DNA of 37,093 bases from a virus (lineage: Duplodnaviria > Heunggongvirae > Uroviricota > Caudoviricetes). The stretch lies in the IMG/VR virus record IMGVR_UViG_2740892211_000019, one strand, 5' to 3'. The notes beneath the pieces are model-generated. The model searched no databases, was not told the DNA's origin, and saw nothing but the letters and a program-made list of their open reading frames with translations. Both the position numbers and the translations under genes were made by a program. Below, in pieces: positions 1,509 through 37,093 of this stretch (its first letter is position 1; every line of letters starts with the position of its first letter).

Positions 1509-2030
1509 ATGCGGGACTTCATTGCCGATAAAGAGTTATCTGACCACCAACCACTTCAGGAAAGTGACGCACTCAGCGGATCCATTGATGCCGCCAACGA
1601 CGACGAGCACGAAGAAAACAAGAAAAAGCGTTCCTACAAAAAAGGAGCGACTTTGCGGCTGGATGGTCCGATCGCCGGGCTTTGCTCTCTGGAAAAAGGC
1701 GCGGCATATATTGGGCTAACAAAATCTGCACTGCGCGTAGCCATTCATCGCGGTCAAATGCCGGGACACAAGACGCGCACAAACCCGGAAGATGAAAACT
1801 CAGACGGAGTATGGTGGTTTAACGCCAAAGAGTGGGACAAGTTGGCTGATGAGCTACCAGAGCACGAGCCCCCAGAATGGCACAACTGGAAAAGTTACTG
1901 GACGTATGACCGCCAGAAAAGGAAGTTCTCTCCAGCTAATAAAGAAGACTGCCAGACCATTAACGGTAAGCGAGTTTATACAGGCAGAAGCTCAAAACTG
2001 GACCAACTCAGAAACAACAGAGGCAACTAA
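1509..2030 (+). CDS. Cox/Apl-like early protein (putative excisionase / early regulator) with N- and C-terminal extensions
   Basis: First gene of the rightward early operon; RBS AGAGGA before the ATG at 1509. Central segment (AAYIGLTKSALRVAIHRGQMP ... DGVWWFNAKEWDK) resembles the HTH plus tryptophan-rich pattern of P2 Cox as I recall it. Position matches cox. Confidence 0.45.
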   Translation: MRDFIADKELSDHQPLQESDALSGSIDAANDDEHEENKKKRSYKKGATLRLDGPIAGLCSLEKGAAYIGLTKSALRVAIHRGQMPGHKTRTNPEDENSDGVWWFNAKEWDKLADELPEHEPPEWHNWKSYWTYDRQKRKFSPANKEDCQTINGKRVYTGRSSKLDQLRNNRGN

Positions 2031-6048: not shown

Positions 6049-8871
6049 ATGACGGCAGAGTACATCAGGGACTGGCAACAACCGCGCCACGCAGTGGGAC
6101 GTGAAGGAACGGGGATCCCCGTTCCTGAATCCGCGCTTTCCTCCTGGCTGGATGCCTACCGGGCAGAGAACGAGCGCCGCCAGGAAATGGCTGATGCGGC
6201 GTTCTCCGCCACGCCGCTGGGCAACCTGATTAATAAAAGCCTGGATGCACAGGAAAAACAGGACAAAACCATCACACTGGCAGGAGACGCCAGAAAACAG
6301 GTACGCGGTGCGGTGGATGAAGCCATGGCCTCGCTGCGCCTGCTGCCGTCCTATCTGCGCGATCCGCTTATTCGCCACCTCTCCTTCCTGCGCAAAAAAC
6401 AGGAAGCCGATCGCCGGAAAGGCAAAAAGAGCTGGCAGGCTGAACGCTACGCGCGCGGAACCCTGCGCAAAATATTCGAACGTCTGGACCGCACCGACCA
6501 CCGCTGGCTGACACCGGGTTATCGCTCCCTTGCCGGACGCGAACGCCTGGATGATTTGCTTTACCTGCCGCAGCTCAACAAGCACCAGATACAGACGCTG
6601 GCCACCATGACGGCGGCGATGTTCAGCAGCACCTTCGAAAAACTCTGCGATGGCTTTGGCGCGACTGATGGCGAGCTGACCATGGATGTAACGCTGAAGG
6701 CGTATCAGATGCTGGCCCGCATGGCGTTACACCTGCACGCCATGCCTCCGCATTATGACGCACTGACAACAGACAAAGACCGGAGGAACGAACCGGACAC
6801 GGAGCTGCTGCCGGGCGCAATCCTTCGCCTGACCTGTGCGGAATGGTGGAAACGCAAACTGTGGCTGTTACGTTGCGAGTGGCGGGAAGAACAACTCCGC
6901 GCCGCCTGTCTGGTTTCCAGAAAAACATCGCCCTATCTGAGCCAGGACGCGTTAAGCGAGTTTCGCGCACAGCGCGAGAAAACACGCGATTTCCTGAAAA
7001 GTTTCATGCTGGAAAACGAAGACGGGTTCACGATTGATCTCGAGACGGTGTATTACGCGGGAGTAAGTAACCCGGTTCACCGTAAGGCAGAAATGATGGC
7101 CACCATGAAGGGGCTGGAACTTCTGGCCGAAGCCCGTGGCGACAAAGCGGTGTTTCTGACTGTCACCTGCCCGTCAAAATACCACGCCACAACAGAGAAC
7201 GGTCATCCGAATCCCAAATGGAACGGGGCCACCATGCGCGACTCCAGCGATTACCTGGTTAACACGTTTTTTGCGGCGGTCCGCAAGAAACTGAACCGCG
7301 ACGGCCTGCGCTGGTATGGCATCCGCACGGTGGAGCCTCACCATGACGGCACCGTGCACTGGCATATGATGGTCTTTGCTCATCCGGAAGAAATCGACAC
7401 CATTGTGTCCCACACCCGCGATATTGCCATTCAGGAAGATCGTCACGAGCTGGGTGATGATATTACCCCACGCTTTAAGGCGGAGTACGTCGACGGCTCA
7501 AAAGGCACACCGACCAGCTACATCGCCACCTACATCGGGAAAAACCTGGACAGCCGTGCCGTGGATGGCATCGACCCGAAAACGGGCAAGCCACGCGTTG
7601 ACCACGAAACCGGAAAATCAATGGCCGAGAGCGTGGAACGCGCCATCGGCTGGGCGCGCCTTCACCGGGTCCGCCAGTTCCAGTTCTTTGGTATCCCCTC
7701 CCGTCAGGTGTGGCGTGAACTGCGCCGCCTTGCCAGCCAGATGGCTCGCAACCCGGAAGGACCGCAACGGCTGAAGGATGACGCAATGGACGCGGTTCTT
7801 GCTGCCGCTGATGCCGGATGTTTTGCCACCTACATAGAGAAACAGGGCGGCGTACTTGTTCCACGCAAGGACTACCTGATTCGCACCGCCTACGACCTCG
7901 CCGATGAGCTGAACGATTACGGTGAACAGAGCGTACAGATTTACGGGATCTGGTCACCGCTCATCGGGGAGTCTTCCCGCGTATGCACGCATCCGGACAA
8001 CTGGAAGCTGGTAAGACGCAAACCGGAAGCGGAAGACAGCGCCCGCGAAAATGGTTTTGACCTTCAGGGCGGCCCTGCCGCACCTTGGACTCGTGGCAAT
8101 AACTGTCCCCGTGTACAGGAAACGGACAACAACGGGACAGAACAGCCGGAAGAACGGCCAGCACCGTGGCCGCAGCTTCCTGACGGCGTTGACGTGAACG
8201 AATGGATGCGCTCACTGAAACGGCACGAACGCCGGGCGCTGATGCGTTCGCTGCGTGACAAACAGGCAAAAAACAGCAGTGATGAAATGCAGAGCTGGAC
8301 ACAGAGCCGCAAACAGCAGCGGCCTTTGCCTGATAACCACGAATTACTCGCTAAAGAATGGCGGGAATCTGCCGAATCTCTCGGCCTGCATATCGGTGAA
8401 CAGCAGATGCAGCACCTGTTACGGGGCGGCAGCCTGTACGTTGACGGCAGCATCATTGCACCGCAGGGATTTGAAATTGTACGCAAACCGGATACCCGCC
8501 CGGACAGCCGAATCACGCAGCTCTGGCAGCGCCTGAGCCGTAATCACGGCGTAAGCAGCACGGAGATCCGCCATAACCCGGTCGCCAGCTATCTGGAACA
8601 GCTGGGGGCATCAGACCCCGAAGCCGCCGCACGTCTGGCATCCACACTTCAGCAGGACCAGAACACCATGAACCCCCCCGTTACCGTGCTTTCTGACATG
8701 CTGCGCGCCATCCGCGACGCAGAGCACGCACAGAGAATCAGTGAAACCACTGAACGTGCCCGCCGCAAAGCAGACCTGCTGCGGGGTGGCCTGACCAGTG
8801 GAAACAAAAAACAGACAGAAACGGGATTCACAAATCCCGTAAATGAGCAAAAAACGCGCCGCGATATATGA
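6049..8871 (+). CDS. A: Replication initiation endonuclease (P2 gpA-like rolling-circle initiator), 940 aa
   Basis: ORF track. Contains the HUH-type metal-binding motif (HHDGTVHWHMMVF) and a tyrosine-bearing block (TSYIATYIGKN) typical of P2 A-family initiators; position matches P2 synteny. Longer than my recollection of P2 gpA. Confidence 0.9.
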   Translation: MTAEYIRDWQQPRHAVGREGTGIPVPESALSSWLDAYRAENERRQEMADAAFSATPLGNLINKSLDAQEKQDKTITLAGDARKQVRGAVDEAMASLRLLPSYLRDPLIRHLSFLRKKQEADRRKGKKSWQAERYARGTLRKIFERLDRTDHRWLTPGYRSLAGRERLDDLLYLPQLNKHQIQTLATMTAAMFSSTFEKLCDGFGATDGELTMDVTLKAYQMLARMALHLHAMPPHYDALTTDKDRRNEPDTELLPGAILRLTCAEWWKRKLWLLRCEWREEQLRAACLVSRKTSPYLSQDALSEFRAQREKTRDFLKSFMLENEDGFTIDLETVYYAGVSNPVHRKAEMMATMKGLELLAEARGDKAVFLTVTCPSKYHATTENGHPNPKWNGATMRDSSDYLVNTFFAAVRKKLNRDGLRWYGIRTVEPHHDGTVHWHMMVFAHPEEIDTIVSHTRDIAIQEDRHELGDDITPRFKAEYVDGSKGTPTSYIATYIGKNLDSRAVDGIDPKTGKPRVDHETGKSMAESVERAIGWARLHRVRQFQFFGIPSRQVWRELRRLASQMARNPEGPQRLKDDAMDAVLAAADAGCFATYIEKQGGVLVPRKDYLIRTAYDLADELNDYGEQSVQIYGIWSPLIGESSRVCTHPDNWKLVRRKPEAEDSARENGFDLQGGPAAPWTRGNNCPRVQETDNNGTEQPEERPAPWPQLPDGVDVNEWMRSLKRHERRALMRSLRDKQAKNSSDEMQSWTQSRKQQRPLPDNHELLAKEWRESAESLGLHIGEQQMQHLLRGGSLYVDGSIIAPQGFEIVRKPDTRPDSRITQLWQRLSRNHGVSSTEIRHNPVASYLEQLGASDPEAAARLASTLQQDQNTMNPPVTVLSDMLRAIRDAEHAQRISETTERARRKADLLRGGLTSGNKKQTETGFTNPVNEQKTRRDI

Positions 8872-8918
8872 AGCGCACACAAAACAGGCAAAAACGGGAT
8901 TTCAGAATCCCGTAAACG
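8818..8918. repeat. Two copies of a ~28-bp palindromic unit (AAACGGGATT-N5-AATCCCGTAAA) about 73 bp apart, directly upstream of parM
   Basis: Copy 1 at 8818..8848 lies inside the last codons of gpA; copy 2 at 8891..8918 overlaps a possible -35/-10 for parM. Read directly from the sequence. Confidence 0.5.
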
Positions 8919-8947
8919 ATTAATTAATCAACATAAGGAAAAGCGAC

Positions 8948-9907
8948 ATGAAAATTTGTATCGACGACGGCTCCACCAACATCAAGCTGGCATGGACTGA
9001 GAATGGCGAACGCCGCAACGCCATCAGCCCGAACAGCTTCAAGTCGGAATGGTCTGCGCCGTTCGGTGGCATGCAGCCCGCGAACTACATGCTTGATGGC
9101 GTGCGCTATGGTTTTGATCCGGTCAGCGATCGCTTTGTCCAGACGACCGACACGCAATACCAGTACAGCGATGTGAATGTAATCGCCATTCATCACGCGC
9201 TGGTCAAATCAGGCATCACGCCACAGGAGGTGGATGTGGTTGTCACCCTGCCACTGAGCGAGTATTTCGACACAAACGCACAGCCGGACATGGCCAACAT
9301 CAACCGCAAAAAAGCGAACGTTATGCGCCCGGTGGAGTACCAGAACGGCGAAGCATTCACTATCCGTAACGTGCGGGTTATGCCTGAATCCATTCCGGCT
9401 GGCTTTAAAGCACTGGCTGACATGAGTCCGTTTGAATCCCTGCTGATTGTGGATTTAGGCGGAACCACGCTGGATGTGGCAAAGGTTCAGGGGCAACTGG
9501 CAGGTATCAGCCAGGTGTTTTGCGATCCACACGTAGGCGTCTCCCTGATGGCCGGTGCCGTGCTGTCGGTGATGGCCGCTAACGGTATGCGTACCAGTCA
9601 CCACATCGCCAATACCATTATCGAACATCGCCATGATGAAGCCTGGTTGCGCCAACACATCCACAATGACGCGCATTACGCCAGCCTGATGGCGGTTATT
9701 CGTGAAAAGGAAGAAACACTGAAACAACGCGTGATCCGCGCGCTGGCGGGTTTTTCGGGTTACGGGCGGGTGATGGTTGTCGGTGGCGGGGCGGAGATTG
9801 TGGCACCCGCTATCCGCGAAGCCTGCGGAGTTAATGCGACTTTCATCGCGGACGGGGTGCCACAGTTTGCTCTGGTTAATGGGCTGTACGCAATGGACAA
9901 GGAGTAA
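8948..9907 (+). CDS. parM: ParM/StbA-family actin-like ATPase (type II plasmid partition NTPase)
   Basis: Translation carries the ParM signature blocks as I recall them from plasmid R1 StbA/ParM: CIDDGSTNIKLAW, YSDVNVIAIHHAL, VMPESIPAGF, LLIVDLGGTTLDVAKV, VMVVGGGAE. RBS AAGGAAAAG before the ATG at 8948. Confidence 0.85.
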   Translation: MKICIDDGSTNIKLAWTENGERRNAISPNSFKSEWSAPFGGMQPANYMLDGVRYGFDPVSDRFVQTTDTQYQYSDVNVIAIHHALVKSGITPQEVDVVVTLPLSEYFDTNAQPDMANINRKKANVMRPVEYQNGEAFTIRNVRVMPESIPAGFKALADMSPFESLLIVDLGGTTLDVAKVQGQLAGISQVFCDPHVGVSLMAGAVLSVMAANGMRTSHHIANTIIEHRHDEAWLRQHIHNDAHYASLMAVIREKEETLKQRVIRALAGFSGYGRVMVVGGGAEIVAPAIREACGVNATFIADGVPQFALVNGLYAMDKE

Positions 9908-9911
9908 ACCA

Positions 9912-10226
9912 ATGACGACACCAACCAGACGGATAAGTTTCTATCTGAAGCCAGTCGCCGTCAATAGTGAACGGGAGGCGTGTAATTACCTCGACAGCCT
10001 GCCAGCCTCTGAACGCAGCCGCGCGCAACGCGCGGCCTTTCTGGCCGGGCTGGCACTCATAAAACGCGATCCTGCATTTGCCTATTGGTTGGCCGAATGG
10101 CCGGAAGAAGGAGCTGCGCCAGCCAAGAATAATATTCAGAGTAAATATGCCAGCACACCTGCCACCGGAAGCAATCACAGCACTAGCGAGATAAGAAAGA
10201 ACATTCAGTCATTTTTCCCAGAGTGA
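9912..10226 (+). CDS. parR: ParR/StbB-like centromere-binding protein (ribbon-helix-helix)
   Basis: ATG at 9912 with AAGGAG upstream, 4 nt after the parM stop. N-terminal beta-strand-like RISFYLKPV, then LDSLPASERSRAQRAAFLAGLAL, which closely matches my recollection of the R1 ParR core. Confidence 0.7.
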   Translation: MTTPTRRISFYLKPVAVNSEREACNYLDSLPASERSRAQRAAFLAGLALIKRDPAFAYWLAEWPEEGAAPAKNNIQSKYASTPATGSNHSTSEIRKNIQSFFPE

Positions 10227-33593: not shown

Positions 33594-33750
33594 AGCTTCA
33601 GCCCCTTGTATCCGTTAAATGATTCGGCAACAATCATCACCCACCACGCGCGTAATCTCACCCCTGCGCCGTTCTCCCGCCACGGCGACAACAAAAAGCA
33701 GTAACCCCCTCCGCACGCACATGCGACCATGCCGCACAGGGAGGGAGCAG

Positions 33751-34860
33751 ATGACCGACACCACCATGCAATTGCTCAGTCAGGGCACAGACCCCGTAAA
33801 AATGCCGGATTTTGATATTCTCGCGGAGGGTAAAACGCTGTCAGGCGTGGCAGAGCGCCTGATGAGCCTGTCACTGACCGACAACCGGGGATTTGAGGCG
33901 GACCAGCTCACCATCACGCTGGATGATGCGGATGGTCAGTTGCAGCTACCGCCACGGGGCGCGCGCCTGACGGTTCTCATTGGCTGGAAGGGAGAACCGC
34001 TGACAGAAAAAGGCACTTACATTGTTGATGAAATCGCTCACGAAGGACCGCCGGACAGGCTGACTGTTTCAGCCAGAAGCGCAGATTTTCGGGATGAATT
34101 TAACGTTAAACATGAGGTGTCCTGGCATGATGTGACCGTTGAGCGTGTGGTATCCGCCATCGCTCATCGGTATGGTCTGAAACCGCAAATCAGCGAAATG
34201 CTGATGGATATCGAAATCGACCACGCCGACCAGACCGAAGAAAGCGACATGTCCTTCCTTACGCGCATGGCGGAAATGCTGGGCGCAATCACCACGGTAA
34301 AAAGCGGCAATCTGTTATTCATCATGCCAGGTGGTGGCGTGAACGCACAGGGCCAGCCGTTGCCCTCGTTCGCCATTACACGCAGCAGCGGCGATCGCCA
34401 TCAGTTCCGCATTGCTGACCGCGAGGCGTATACGGGGGTACGCGCCTACTGGCTTGATCTTAATTACGGGAAAAAGAAAAAAGTCAGCGTGAAACGCCGT
34501 AAACCGCCAAAACCCAAAAAGGAGAAAAGCAGCAGCCGTGAAGGTGATTATATGGAAGGCGCGGAAGGCAATGTGTTTGTGTTACGCAAGACTTATCAGA
34601 ACGAGCAGGCAGCAAGACGCGCAGCGGCGGCAAAGTGGCAGCAACTACAACGCGGAGCCGCATCATTCTCCATCACGCTGGCGCGTGGACGTGCAGAACT
34701 CTACCCCGAAATGCATGGCACGGTAACAGGATTTAAAAGCGAGATTGATAATCAGGACTGGATTATTGCAAAAGCCGAGCACACCATTGATAACAGCGGC
34801 TTTACCACGCAGCTTGAGCTTGAGGCAAAAATCCCGGAATGGATAGCGGAAACAGAGTGA
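33751..34860 (+). CDS. D: Tail protein D (late control gene D product)
   Basis: ATG at 33751 with GGGAGGGAG upstream, inside ORF 33619..34860. N-terminus (LLSQGTDPVKMPDF ... SLTDNRGFEADQL) resembles P2 gpD as I recall it. Confidence 0.85.
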   Translation: MTDTTMQLLSQGTDPVKMPDFDILAEGKTLSGVAERLMSLSLTDNRGFEADQLTITLDDADGQLQLPPRGARLTVLIGWKGEPLTEKGTYIVDEIAHEGPPDRLTVSARSADFRDEFNVKHEVSWHDVTVERVVSAIAHRYGLKPQISEMLMDIEIDHADQTEESDMSFLTRMAEMLGAITTVKSGNLLFIMPGGGVNAQGQPLPSFAITRSSGDRHQFRIADREAYTGVRAYWLDLNYGKKKKVSVKRRKPPKPKKEKSSSREGDYMEGAEGNVFVLRKTYQNEQAARRAAAAKWQQLQRGAASFSITLARGRAELYPEMHGTVTGFKSEIDNQDWIIAKAEHTIDNSGFTTQLELEAKIPEWIAETE

Positions 34861-34902
34861 GCAACTTAGAATAGCGACAGCACCACGTTAAGGGAGGTCG
34901 CT

Positions 34903-35163
34903 ATGTTCCGTTGTCCGCTTTGTGGCGCATCTGCCCGTATCCGCACCAGTCGTCCGGAAAATGATTCAAACACCGTGCGGCAAAAGTATTACCAGTGTAA
35001 CAACCTGGAATGCGGCGTATGCTTCTCAACACTGGAAGCTTTCCATAAATTCACATCGAAACACGCCTCCGGCGTTCACTCATCAGAAGGTATCCCGTGG
35101 CATGAGCTGCCAGCTTCACACAGGGGAAACAATCAGATGAGTTTGCCTTTACCTCAGAATTAA
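34903..35163 (+). CDS. ogr: Ogr/Delta-family zinc-finger late-gene transcription activator
   Basis: MFRCPLCG ... YYQCNNLECGVCF shows the Cys4 zinc-finger spacing of Ogr; position after D matches P2. Confidence 0.85.
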   Translation: MFRCPLCGASARIRTSRPENDSNTVRQKYYQCNNLECGVCFSTLEAFHKFTSKHASGVHSSEGIPWHELPASHRGNNQMSLPLPQN

Positions 35164-35354
35164 CAGGCAGAATTGCCGGAGTAACAAAAAAGCGATAGAT
35201 TACGCGCGGGTGCCTTTCGGCTGATGGTCGGAGGGAATACCCGAAGGCCAGATGTGGAAAGGCCCCGAGTCAACTTTAACGTTAACCCGAGGCCCTAACC
35301 ATCTACCCTCAGCAAGTGATAGGTTAGCGCCTCCCCGAAAAAGGAGCAAGCGCT

Positions 35355-35495
35355 ATGTCGCAAAAATCGCTTACGGCCATCACATTCTGCGTGACGGCAA
35401 TCCTCATCATCTGGATGCTGCACGGTTCGCTGTGTGAAATACGGATGAGTTTCTGGGGAGCGGAGTTTGCGGCGTTCTTACAGTGTAAGCAGTAA
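35355..35495 (+). CDS. hok: Hok/Gef-family type I toxin (46 aa)
   Basis: Hand translation MSQKSLTAITFCVTAILIIWMLHGSLCEIRMSFWGAEFAAFLQCKQ: TM helix, then the conserved SLCE(I/L) and AAF(L/M) blocks of Hok proteins. AAGGAG RBS 8 nt upstream. An overlapping upstream frame (35252..35437) may be mok-like. Confidence 0.7.
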   Translation: MSQKSLTAITFCVTAILIIWMLHGSLCEIRMSFWGAEFAAFLQCKQ

Positions 35496-35589
35496 GGAAA
35501 CCGCGACGGGGAAGGCAACTTCCCCGTCAATCGGTTGCCAGGGTAAAGGTCGAAAAGGCACCCTATTTCCAGTTGACGTGAACAACAAG

Positions 35590-35621
35590 CCCGCAGCGTA
35601 AAAACTGCGGGTTTTCTTTTT
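35590..35621 (+). terminator. Rho-independent terminator (CCCGCAG-cgtaaaaa-CTGCGGG followed by TTTTCTTTTT)
   Basis: Read directly from the sequence, downstream of the hok-like ORF. Confidence 0.65.
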
Positions 35622-35654
35622 GGTTCCCTCACTCATGAGGACACCAAAAAACAA

Positions 35655-35684
35655 AGCCCACAGCATAGAAGCTGTGGGCTTTTT
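35655..35684. terminator. Bidirectional intrinsic terminator (AGCCCACAGC-ataga-AGCTGTGGGCT)
   Basis: Stem followed by TTTTT on the plus strand and by TTTGTTTTTTGG on the minus strand. Confidence 0.6.
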
Positions 35685-35800
35685 GCATTCAAAGATGGAC
35701 GTTATATGGACACTTAAAAATAAAATCCATTTATTTTCAAATGATTAAACCTCTACTTAAAGCGCCCGCAGGCGCTTTTTAGATTCAGAAAAATTGGGTA

Positions 35801-37093
<1,293 letters not shown>

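Follow-up and report, generated by a model that had tools for sequence, protein, structure and literature searches.

The right end of the prophage in IMG/VR record IMGVR_UViG_2740892211_000019 carries what we consider, with a probability of roughly 85%, to be an intact hok/sok-type type I toxin-antitoxin cassette, an accessory gene of a P88-like prophage inserted in the serS terminator (positions are those of the window, the whole analysed stretch of 37,093 nt). Its most likely role would be that of an addiction or stability module for the element that carries it, here penalising loss of the prophage. Based on homology with hok/sok of R1 and with hokB/sokB and hokC/sokC of Escherichia coli K-12, the full-length hok mRNA would be translationally inert, and a short, unstable antisense RNA from the minus strand (approximately 35313 to 35250) would pair with its leader and keep Hok off. 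If the cassette or its transcription were lost, the stable mRNA would outlive the antisense RNA, and Hok would be made, damaging the inner membrane and leading to cell death. The identification given in the earlier note is correct, and the hok cassette is one already known and common in E. coli.

A 46-aa Hok-family type I toxin had been proposed between ogr and serS, and comparison with Hok/Gef profiles confirmed both its identity and its position (Table 1). The predicted protein (MSQKSLTAITFCVTAILIIWMLHGSLCEIRMSFWGAEFAAFLQCKQ) matched Pfam PF01848 (HOK_GEF) above the gathering cut-off (29.9 bits against 22, E 4.1e-7), with the match spanning residues 7-44 of the ORF and positions 5-42 of the 42 in the profile, and also matched PHROG 251 ("MokW-like host killing") with 80.6 bits (E 1e-22). 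Its size and architecture are those of Hok/Gef proteins (approximately 50 aa, a single N-terminal hydrophobic helix, and Cys-Glu and Ala-Ala-Phe towards the C-terminus). The hydrophobic stretch covers residues 6-22 (LTAITFCVTAILIIWML), and the SLCEI and AAF blocks, which had been recognised by eye, are present at residues 25-29 and 39-41, where they align with Hok of R1, HokC and HokB (including C27, E28 and A39-A40-F41). The ORF is under purifying selection, with dN/dS values of 0.00-0.54 against nine relatives. These features identify it as a genuine Hok/Gef toxin. Scores against the NCBIfam models NF007279 (Hok subfamily, 21.6 bits) and NF007290 (HokA, 34 bits) did not reach the respective cut-offs of 73 and 89 bits, marking it as a divergent branch of Hok proteins that RefSeq names at the Pfam level only. 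RefSeq already lists the ORF under Hok/Gef (WP_000078916.1, "Hok/Gef family protein"), and in phage P88 it goes by "MokW-like host killing", in which "MokW" is a misnomer, given that the ORF is a homologue of Hok. Literature searches on the protein accessions, on P88 together with hok, and on hok or ParM in 2026 papers on P2-like phages returned nothing.

Table 1. Features of the hok locus, the prophage right end and the ParMR region, in window coordinates.
Feature	Position	Strand	Basis or remark
parC-like element, two 43-nt direct repeats (8804-8846 and 8877-8919)	8804-8919	.	directly upstream of parM
parM	8948-9907	+	Pfam StbA_N 274.9 bits, ParM C-terminal domain 227 bits
parR/stbB	9915-10226	+	Pfam Plasmid_stab_B 88 bits
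ogr/delta late-gene activator	34903-35163	+	Pfam Ogr_Delta 52.4 bits; directly upstream of hok, same strand
Putative weak hok promoter, -35 TTGCCG (35173-35178), 17-nt spacer, -10 TAGATT (35196-35201)	35173-35201	+	inferred from sequence reading
hok mRNA, ~413 nt, from GGGUGCC 5' end to intrinsic terminator	35208-35622	+	Rfam RF01794 start, fold, terminator prediction
tac-like 5' element GGGUGCCUUU	35208-35217	+	exact complement of 35554-35563
Predicted Sok-like antisense RNA, 5' tail then long hairpin	35250-35313	-	position of annotated sokC/sokB
Overlapping 61-codon frame proposed as mok, probably fortuitous	35252-35437	+	not conserved in relatives
Predicted sok promoter, -35 TTGCTC (reverse complement of 35344-35349), 17-nt spacer, -10 TAACCT (reverse complement of 35321-35326)	35321-35349	-	
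Shine-Dalgarno AAGGAG of hok	35341-35346	+	
hok coding sequence, 46 aa	35355-35495	+	Pfam PF01848, PHROG 251, RefSeq WP_000078916.1, dN/dS
fbi-like 3' element AAAGGCACCC, fold-back partner of mRNA 5' end	35554-35563	+	complementarity, relatives
Intrinsic terminator of hok mRNA	35587-35614	+	terminator prediction; hairpin reads as a terminator on the minus strand too
Phage-borne terminator facing serS, 12-bp stem then GTTTTTT	35653-35682	-	terminator prediction
attR core, 20 bp, AAAGCGCCTGCGGGCGCTTT	35759-35778	.	identical to serS terminator hairpin; prophage right end
serS	35801-37093	-	

Leader RNA, predicted antisense RNA and the overlapping frame

The stem-rich, hok-type leader that had been described from the sequence was upheld by structure prediction and by comparison with Rfam. 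The region 35200-35620 had a predicted minimum free energy of -174.7 kcal/mol (z = -6.8 against shuffled sequences), and the hok-leader model RF01794 matched from 35208 over its full length (E 5e-8). With 42.8 bits, the leader of the window did not reach the gathering score of 59 bits for this model; the 933W copy of the cassette scored 35.6 bits, and the hok strands of hokC, hokB and an R1-type locus, used as controls, scored 87-118 bits. The match could have been taken for a "sok" on the wrong (plus) strand, a reading that was dismissed because controls with K-12 hokB and hokC establish the hok leader strand as the one that the model describes.

The 5' end of the mRNA is exactly complementary over 10 nt to an element downstream of the coding sequence (35208-35217 with 35554-35563), which is the fold-back pairing expected of tac and fbi elements. 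Allowing for G-U wobbles, 37-38 of 38 relatives have the pairs between 35208-35211 and 35560-35563, and the consensus fold of the 38 distinct relatives retained closure between the 5' and 3' ends, with compensatory pairs. In the same consensus fold, the region of the hok start codon (35355-35364) pairs with 35466-35475. The mRNA is strongly folded and conserved, and its start codon is buried in a long-range helix. Upstream, the -10 element of the putative hok promoter ends 6 nt before the mRNA 5' end, and the combination of TTGCC with a TAGATT, TAAATT or TAGAAT hexamer is kept in relatives whose upstream contexts differ.

We placed the promoter of the predicted antisense RNA by comparison with annotated sokB and sokC of K-12, which lie antisense to positions ~43-106 of the leader model, equivalent in the window to 35313 to approximately 35251. 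The RNA predicted there folds with -34.3 kcal/mol (z = -5.8) and resembles SokC and SokB; the U run after its hairpin is short (UUU). The predicted -10 element ends 7 nt before a G start at 35313, giving a geometry that matches those of sokB (TTGCCG-17-TAAGAT-7-G) and the R1-type locus (TTGCGC-17-TATCCT), and the TAACCT hexamer was invariant in 42 of 42 distinct relatives. For the Sok-like promoter that was to be sought on the opposite strand, geometry and conservation thus agree with known loci, but a consensus promoter scan of 34850-35850 found none, with the hok and sok promoters both below threshold, and it is best described as predicted. These scan results, the short U run, the lack of a conserved mok (below), and the RF01794 and NCBIfam scores under their curated cut-offs weigh against reading the locus as an intact hok/sok-type cassette. 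Databases annotate the ORF alone and leave out the antisense RNA and the mRNA elements; since the abundant 46-aa branch falls under the Rfam and NCBIfam thresholds, its RNA parts go unannotated.

The overlapping frame upstream of hok, which had been put forward as a possible mok, exists in the window but is not conserved. Of 42 distinct related units, only 8, one of them the window, have an ORF that begins at the aligned ATG and extends beyond the start of hok. In P88, 933W and most others the equivalent ORF ends after 1-24 codons, and a different overlapping frame, or no such frame, is seen in other relatives. A TAG at 35325-35327 closes the hok frame upstream of its start. A functional mok at 35252-35437 was rejected because of this lack of conservation, and the frame is probably fortuitous. 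With no conserved mok, the translational-coupling step cannot apply in the form described for R1, and it is probably the strong Shine-Dalgarno sequence of hok itself that would drive translation after the mRNA has refolded. On a modest reading, the 46-aa Hok branch may have dispensed with mok and would use a simpler translational switch than that of the R1 paradigm.

Prophage context and distribution of the cassette

Whether the hok locus lies inside attR or just outside it had been left undecided, pending comparison with an empty site downstream of serS. A three-way comparison of the attR of the window, the empty serS-dmsA site of K-12 and the attL of another strain yielded a 20-bp core (Table 1), and the hok locus lies inside the prophage att sites. 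Since this core coincides with the serS terminator hairpin, hok counts as phage cargo. The attL was taken from a strain with a 100% identical integrase, as the window begins at the integrase stop codon and so does not include the attL of its own prophage. The prophage of that strain is ~1.5 kb longer than that of the window. A modest use of this result is that the prophage boundary is now fixed at the serS terminator hairpin.

P2-type gpA, gpD, Cox, integrase and ogr were found in the window, the ogr-hok region is 92% identical to that of P88, and ParM is 99.1% identical. From the ogr-hok region, ParM and the P2-type genes, the prophage is identified as P88-like (genus Xuanwuvirus, Peduoviridae; P2-family). 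The same ogr-hok arrangement is shared by P88, Chuche, P884B11 and phiSM, which are isolated and sequenced phages of this group.

The Hok/Gef gene is annotated in 1569 of the 5426 complete E. coli genomes (29%), and hundreds of phages share the conserved unit that runs from promoter to fold-back element. The frequency of ParMR in the same set of genomes is 27%. All 80 viral loci recovered by a profile search with a two-sequence alignment encode an identical protein. The same cassette was found in three kinds of mobile element, namely P2-like phages, Stx phages (next to lom) and IncI1 plasmids. Similarity between the cassettes of different elements is confined to the stretch from the promoter to the fold-back element, ending just after the fbi-like element, as would be expected of a self-contained selfish module. 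In Stx phages, the copy has the same orientation as lom and directly follows it where the late region ends; it shares 83% DNA and 74% protein identity with that of the window and carries no annotation in the 933W record. At the variable prophage end where the window has its cassette, another P2-like prophage has two tandem copies, and a truncated copy that looks different also exists (L101). As the cassette moves among the three kinds of element, it offers a convenient natural test of stabilisation versus lysis timing versus defence as roles for prophage-borne hok.

Possible role of the cassette and its relation to ParMR

The position of hok directly downstream of gpD-ogr, on the same strand and with no terminator predicted between ogr and hok, would suit a helper of lysis, for which the antisense RNA would be lost after induction, or swamped by read-through from gpD-ogr, so that Hok advances lysis and phage release. 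The placement of the Stx-phage cassette after lom fits such a role, as do findings for hokW-sokW, where sokW RNA is lost after mitomycin C, HokW production is RecA-dependent, and the phage yield of a deletion mutant is halved (Takada et al. 2021, PMC8621323). We consider this role possible but unlikely, however, as HokW is a different Hok, the cassette also occurs on IncI1 plasmids, which have no lytic cycle, and a read-through transcript would be without the native 5' end that the refolding pathway needs.

A role in defence appears improbable. An infecting phage would stop host transcription, the antisense RNA would decay, and Hok would kill the cell before the invader finishes its cycle. R1 hok/sok was reported to exclude phage T4 (Pecota and Wood 1996), and the tandem copies at the variable prophage end noted above would also suit defence cargo. 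Although P2-like phages are known to carry such cargo, hok lies outside their cos-adjacent hotspot (PMC9122126), and a search of PADLOC-DB for defence systems gave no match.

ParMR is present on the same prophage as hok, as had been noticed. The Pfam matches (Table 1) identify an actin-like ParM ATPase and a ParR adaptor in tandem, as in type II ParMRC systems, and each of the 43-nt repeats upstream of parM holds a palindrome (ACGGGATT-N4-AATCCCGT); the repeats may act as a centromere or operator. A partition system has been reported in about a quarter of P2-like phages (Rousset et al. 2022, PMC9122126). The further proposal, that hok and ParMR function as a plasmid-like stability pair, was not supported by comparison with related phages and genomes. 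The two modules are ~25 kb apart and occupy separate variable spots, ParMR being flanked by gpA and the portal gene in what is the cos-adjacent hotspot of P2-like phages. Each also occurs singly: phage 500465-2 has hok with no match to ParM, 569R5, 705R2 and 503458 have ParM with no match to hok, and the hok cassette is also carried by Stx phages and IncI1 plasmids. Moreover, the gpA-ParMR segment is chromosomal in 1639 of its 1641 places in complete E. coli genomes, with the other 2 on plasmids.

The same data bear on the idea of a facultative phage-plasmid, in which ParMRC and Hok/Sok would together sustain a low-copy episome when integration at the serS terminator is unavailable. Rousset et al. 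(2022) speculated that partition may let P2-like prophages persist as plasmids (PMC9122126). ParM, ParR and the parC-like repeat are all intact, both modules occur in six deposited P88-like phages, and a 34.5-kb circular "plasmid" record represents a complete phage of the P88-like type with int, ParMR and hok. Yet this was the one phage-sized record among 72,556 plasmid records, and its gpA-ParMR segment matches best (100% over 4.2 kb) the chromosome of a similarly named strain. With an integrase that looks working, clean att sites, and the chromosomal location and separate occurrence described above, we regard an episomal lifestyle as very improbable.

That the locus is instead a hok remnant, decayed or silent as several chromosomal loci of K-12 are, or a small ORF arisen by chance, can be given next to no credence. 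In favour of this reading, many chromosomal hok loci are known to be inactivated, and the Rfam and NCBIfam scores are below curated thresholds. Against it, the window has a complete ORF on which purifying selection acts, hundreds of phages and 1569 genomes keep the unit from promoter to fold-back element, and the truncated copy looks different from that of the window.

Comparison with known systems

The cassette shares with hok/sok (parB) of R1, and with its relatives on F-type plasmids, a Hok/Gef toxin with one transmembrane helix and the SLCEI and AAF blocks, a structured mRNA of ~400 nt whose 5' and 3' ends pair, a leader recognised by the same Rfam model, and a predicted antisense promoter that overlaps the Shine-Dalgarno region of hok and has a 17-nt spacer. 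It differs in that the two Hok proteins are only 30% identical (46 aa versus 52), mok is not conserved, the Rfam score is under the gathering threshold, the stretch between the leader hairpin and the Shine-Dalgarno sequence is shorter, and the carrier is a phage rather than a plasmid. The partition genes likewise resemble R1 ParMRC and the partition systems in the hotspot of P2-like phages, with an actin-like ParM, a ParR/StbB adaptor and repeated palindromes upstream. However, parC of R1 comprises ten 11-bp iterons, whereas the candidate parC of the window comprises two 43-nt units.

As in hokB/sokB and hokC/sokC of K-12, the predicted antisense RNA lies at the annotated Sok positions. Like SokB and SokC, it would consist of a 5' tail and a GGCCUCGG...CCGGGGCC hairpin, and its promoter would have the geometry of that of sokB. 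Protein identity to the K-12 toxins is 24%, mokB and mokC are annotated in K-12, and the K-12 leaders score 110-118 bits against RF01794, compared with 42.8 bits for the leader of the window.

Among prophage-borne hok/sok loci, hokW-sokW of the Stx2 prophage Sp5 is the only one with experimental data, covering toxicity, the antidote RNA, and dependence on RNase III and Hfq (Takada et al. 2021, PMC8621323). It was reported to make lysis come sooner once the prophage is induced, and not to stabilise the prophage. Unlike the 46-aa Hok, HokW has 51 aa and starts with MKQQKAM, and Stx phages carry the window-type hok as a second locus next to lom. The Stx-phage match was accordingly rejected as being the published hokW-sokW; the hokW start sequence (from cloning primer YO-357) was absent from the nine loci compared, 933W included. 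In phage P88, gp52 is the same gene in the same place after ogr, with no material difference, and the Hok protein is 97.8-100% identical in P88, P884B11, Chuche, PhiR44_2 and phiSM.

The hok gene and its place in the prophage

The 46-aa ORF, which the earlier note had assigned to the Hok family and placed between ogr and serS, proved correct on both counts. Its score with the Pfam Hok/Gef model is 29.9 bits, above the cut-off of 22 (E = 4e-7), and with PHROG 251 ('MokW-like host killing') it reaches 80.6 bits; RefSeq holds exactly this protein as WP_000078916.1 ('Hok/Gef family protein'). The proposed conserved blocks, Cys-Glu and Ala-Ala-Phe, are preceded by a hydrophobic N-terminal stretch and align with those of Hok of plasmid R1, HokC and HokB. 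Scores against the narrower NCBIfam Hok models fell below their cut-offs; judged by its sequence, the protein is a divergent branch of the Hok/Gef family. Pairwise dN/dS against nine relatives was 0.00-0.54, implying that the ORF is under purifying selection.

Whether hok lies inside or outside attR had been left unclear. We compared the serS-proximal junction of the window with the empty serS-dmsA spacer of K-12 and with the junction next to the integrase in strain MS10860. This strain matches the window at 100% identity across a 701-nt query running from ogr to serS, and its integrase is likewise 100% identical. This three-way comparison yielded a 20-bp att core ~140 bp beyond the end of the hok unit, placing hok inside the prophage. 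The core coincides with the serS terminator hairpin, so that the transcription terminator of serS is where the phage inserts; attR keeps this hairpin, with its seven-T run shortened to TTT and followed by AAGT. Nor does the ORF belong to an unrelated element, as the ogr-hok arrangement recurs at 92-95% DNA identity in phages P88, Chuche, P884B11, PhiR44_2, 500465-2 and Citrobacter phage phiSM. Similarity to P88 ends at ~35621, and the integration modules differ beyond. The phage-borne terminator facing serS, together with the two-way hairpin after hok, would block serS read-through antisense into hok. Many predicted IMG/VR proviral contigs (L021, L023 and others; length 3141) stop 3 nt past the hok stop codon, so that gene-based boundaries lose the fold-back element, terminator and att arm.

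Features of the hok and ParMR loci (window positions unless stated)
Feature	Position	Strand	Remarks
Candidate parC centromere / ParR operator	8804-8846 and 8877-8919		two 43-nt direct repeats upstream of parM, each with palindrome ACGGGATT-N4-AATCCCGT
parM	8948-9907		clear identification
parR/stbB	9915-10226		clear identification
ogr/delta zinc-finger gene	34903-35163		upstream neighbour of hok
Putative weak hok promoter	35173-35201	+	TTGCCG (35173-35178), 17 nt, TAGATT (35196-35201)
tac-like 5' end of predicted mRNA	35208-35217	+	GGGUGCCUUU, first ten bases
Predicted Sok-like antisense RNA	35313 to ~35250	-	leader-model positions equal to K-12 sokC/sokB
Predicted sok promoter	upstream of 35313	-	TTGCTC, 17 nt, TAACCT, 7 nt, G
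hok ORF	35355-35495	+	46 codons, MSQKSLTAITFCVTAILIIWMLHGSLCEIRMSFWGAEFAAFLQCKQ
fbi-like 3' element	35554-35563	+	AAAGGCACCC, exact complement of 35208-35217
Intrinsic terminator of hok mRNA	35587-35614		two-way hairpin
Strong phage-borne terminator	35682-35653	-	faces serS
att core	35759-35778		AAAGCGCCTGCGGGCGCTTT
serS	35801-37093	-	downstream neighbour of hok
Stx-phage Hok locus	1501-1875 of phage 933W (L005, AF125520.1); ORF 1670-1810		46 aa, directly after lom

RNA features of the locus and the overlapping frame

The stem-rich leader anticipated for this mRNA is well borne out: the fold of 35200-35620, at -174.7 kcal/mol, is far more stable than those of its shuffles (z = -6.8). Rfam model RF01794 matches at full length at 35208-35368 (+) (E = 5e-8, 42.8 bits), below its gathering score of 59. 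In K-12, this model matches the coding strands of hokC and hokB, ending at their start codons, and it does likewise in the R1-type plasmid locus. RF01794, although called 'sok antitoxin', thus describes the sense strand, covering the leader of the hok mRNA as far as the hok AUG. It does not describe the antisense Sok RNA, and the strand of any match (here, or at 754-602 and 918-767 in comparison loci L006 and L007) should be read accordingly. Scores for the 46-aa branch were 42.8 and 35.6 bits, both under the gathering threshold, and its loci are therefore missed by default Rfam annotation.

Complementarity between the two ends of the predicted mRNA follows the same arrangement as tac and fbi in R1 hok, and the position of the terminator gives a transcript of ~413 nt. 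When 38 distinct related units were folded to a consensus, this end closure was retained in 37-38 of 38, the hok start codon region (35355-35364) paired with 35466-35475, and several helices showed compensatory changes. The putative hok promoter fell below threshold in a consensus promoter scan.

Annotated sokC and sokB of K-12 are antisense to positions ~43-106 of the RF01794 leader model, and by homology the equal positions in the window are predicted to encode a Sok-like RNA. On the opposite strand, which the earlier note had proposed to search, a predicted promoter precedes this RNA, with the layout of sokB (TTGCCG-17-TAAGAT-7-G before the annotated start) and the R1-type locus (TTGCGC-17-TATCCT). 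Its TAACCT was unchanged in 42 of 42 distinct relatives, the bases immediately downstream being variable; this invariance has two possible causes, since the same bases also form a stem of the hok mRNA. The predicted RNA folds into a single-stranded 5' tail and long hairpin (-34.3 kcal/mol, z = -5.8), like SokC and SokB of K-12.

The overlapping frame suggested as mok (35252-35437) is open in the window but is not conserved. Traced from the aligned ATG in 42 distinct versions of the hok unit from phages, plasmids and genomes, the ORF extends beyond the hok start in only eight, the window included, and is probably fortuitous rather than a functional mok; its length is 19 codons in P88 and 8 in 933W, and lies between 1 and 24 in most of the rest. 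In some alleles another frame, beginning 130 nt ahead of hok, overlaps the gene, and many alleles lack any overlapping frame, implying that this 46-aa Hok branch is without a conserved mok. The hok frame is closed upstream by TAG (35325-35327), and we infer that hok is translated directly after the mRNA refolds, via its own good Shine-Dalgarno (AAGGAG, 8 nt ahead of the ATG). The ATG at 35252-35254 is retained in nearly all relatives, with a downstream ORF of 1 to 79 codons. It sits in the 3' half of the conserved 5' hairpin, so the structure of the RNA may account for its retention; a leader peptide of very few codons is a possible alternative.

Distribution of the cassette and its association with ParMR

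The hok unit (35187-35570) occurs in 1569 of 5426 complete E. coli genomes, at up to 8 copies per genome, and every match listed except one, a partial match, carries a Hok/Gef annotation. The prophage occupies serS in 291 genomes, many of them ST131. A second Hok copy (83% DNA and 74% protein identity) adjoins lom in 933W, Sp5/VT2-Sakai and other Stx phages, and is unannotated in 933W and many other or older Stx phage records. It is distinct from the published hokW, which has 51 aa and begins MKQQKAM. Further copies were found on IncI1 plasmids and beside ykgM in an O157 chromosome fragment. Another P2-like prophage (L100, CP061233.1) has tandem cassettes after ogr (779-1141 and 1501-1877, ~75% identical to that of the window), suggesting that the ogr-att interval may be a landing spot for them. 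Similarity among contexts spans only promoter to fold-back element, and so the mobile unit is the cassette itself. Hok at 72-98% identity was also seen in contigs labelled Planococcaceae MAG, Vagococcus sp. and Xanthomonas pisi (L010, L011 and L014), which probably reflect contamination or mis-binning, not real hosts.

The earlier note had paired Hok with ParMR as a plasmid-like stability system. Both are present on the prophage, ParMR being flanked by gpA, the replication gene, and the gene for the portal. Going by P2 gene order, we take this interval to be the cos-adjacent hotspot that Rousset et al. (2022, PMC9122126) described in P2-like phages, about a quarter of which they noted to have a partition system. 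The repeats upstream of parM (81% identical, 73 bp apart, spanning the gpA end and gpA-parM spacer) are a plausible parC. ParM was found at 95-99% identity in ten distinct deposited P88-like phages, six of which also carry the hok cassette (P88, P884B11, 520873, phiSM, PhiR44_2 and Chuche); 569R5, 705R2, 503458 and a predicted ST131 prophage record had no hok match, and phage 500465-2 has hok with no ParM match. Co-occurrence is therefore frequent but not obligatory.

Across complete genomes, the gpA-ParMR segment was located at 1639 chromosomal versus 2 plasmid places, and the 72,556 plasmid records included only one phage-sized circle (NZ_CP148288.1, 34.5 kb). These counts do not support a habitual plasmid lifestyle; an occasional episomal state is possible. 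The 34,461-bp circle (L008), which was submitted as a plasmid, represents an entire P88-like phage: it encodes integrase, ParM, ParR, ogr and Hok, and has a com/methyltransferase pair between hok and att. Its gpA-ParMR segment best matches the chromosome of a similarly named strain (NZ_CP148378.1, 100% over 4.2 kb), and the circle may be excised phage DNA, not a plasmid that is stably maintained.

Proposed mechanism, role and relation to known systems

We consider it highly probable (about 0.85) that the locus follows the classical type I scheme without mok coupling. The toxin mRNA would be stable, folded and initially inert, and would be blocked and destroyed by an unstable antisense RNA; should the antisense supply stop, Hok would be made and act on the inner membrane, mok coupling playing no part. 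Stabilisation of the carrying element ranks first among putative roles, because the cassette is self-contained and is carried by mobile elements of three types, plasmids among them.

Ranked second is a lysis-helper function, by analogy with hokW-sokW of Stx2 prophage Sp5, for which this role was shown (Takada et al. 2021, PMC8621323). The cassette follows the late operons in the same orientation, and no terminator is predicted between ogr and hok; this placement is consistent with such a function. In P2-like (window 33619-35495) and Stx phages (933W, 703-1810) alike, the cassette closes the late (tail) gene block and shares its strand. In neither interval was a terminator predicted after the last late gene and ahead of hok, so transcripts of the late genes could continue into hok during lytic growth. 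Abortive-infection defence ranks third, a PADLOC search having given no match.

RefSeq, PHROGs and the P88 record already contain the gene with its family assignment, and the occurrence of ParMR in P2-like phages has been published before. The accessible literature held no account of the RNA parts of the 46-aa branch, its absence of mok, or the second, unannotated Stx-phage hok locus, all of which are refinements of a well-known system.
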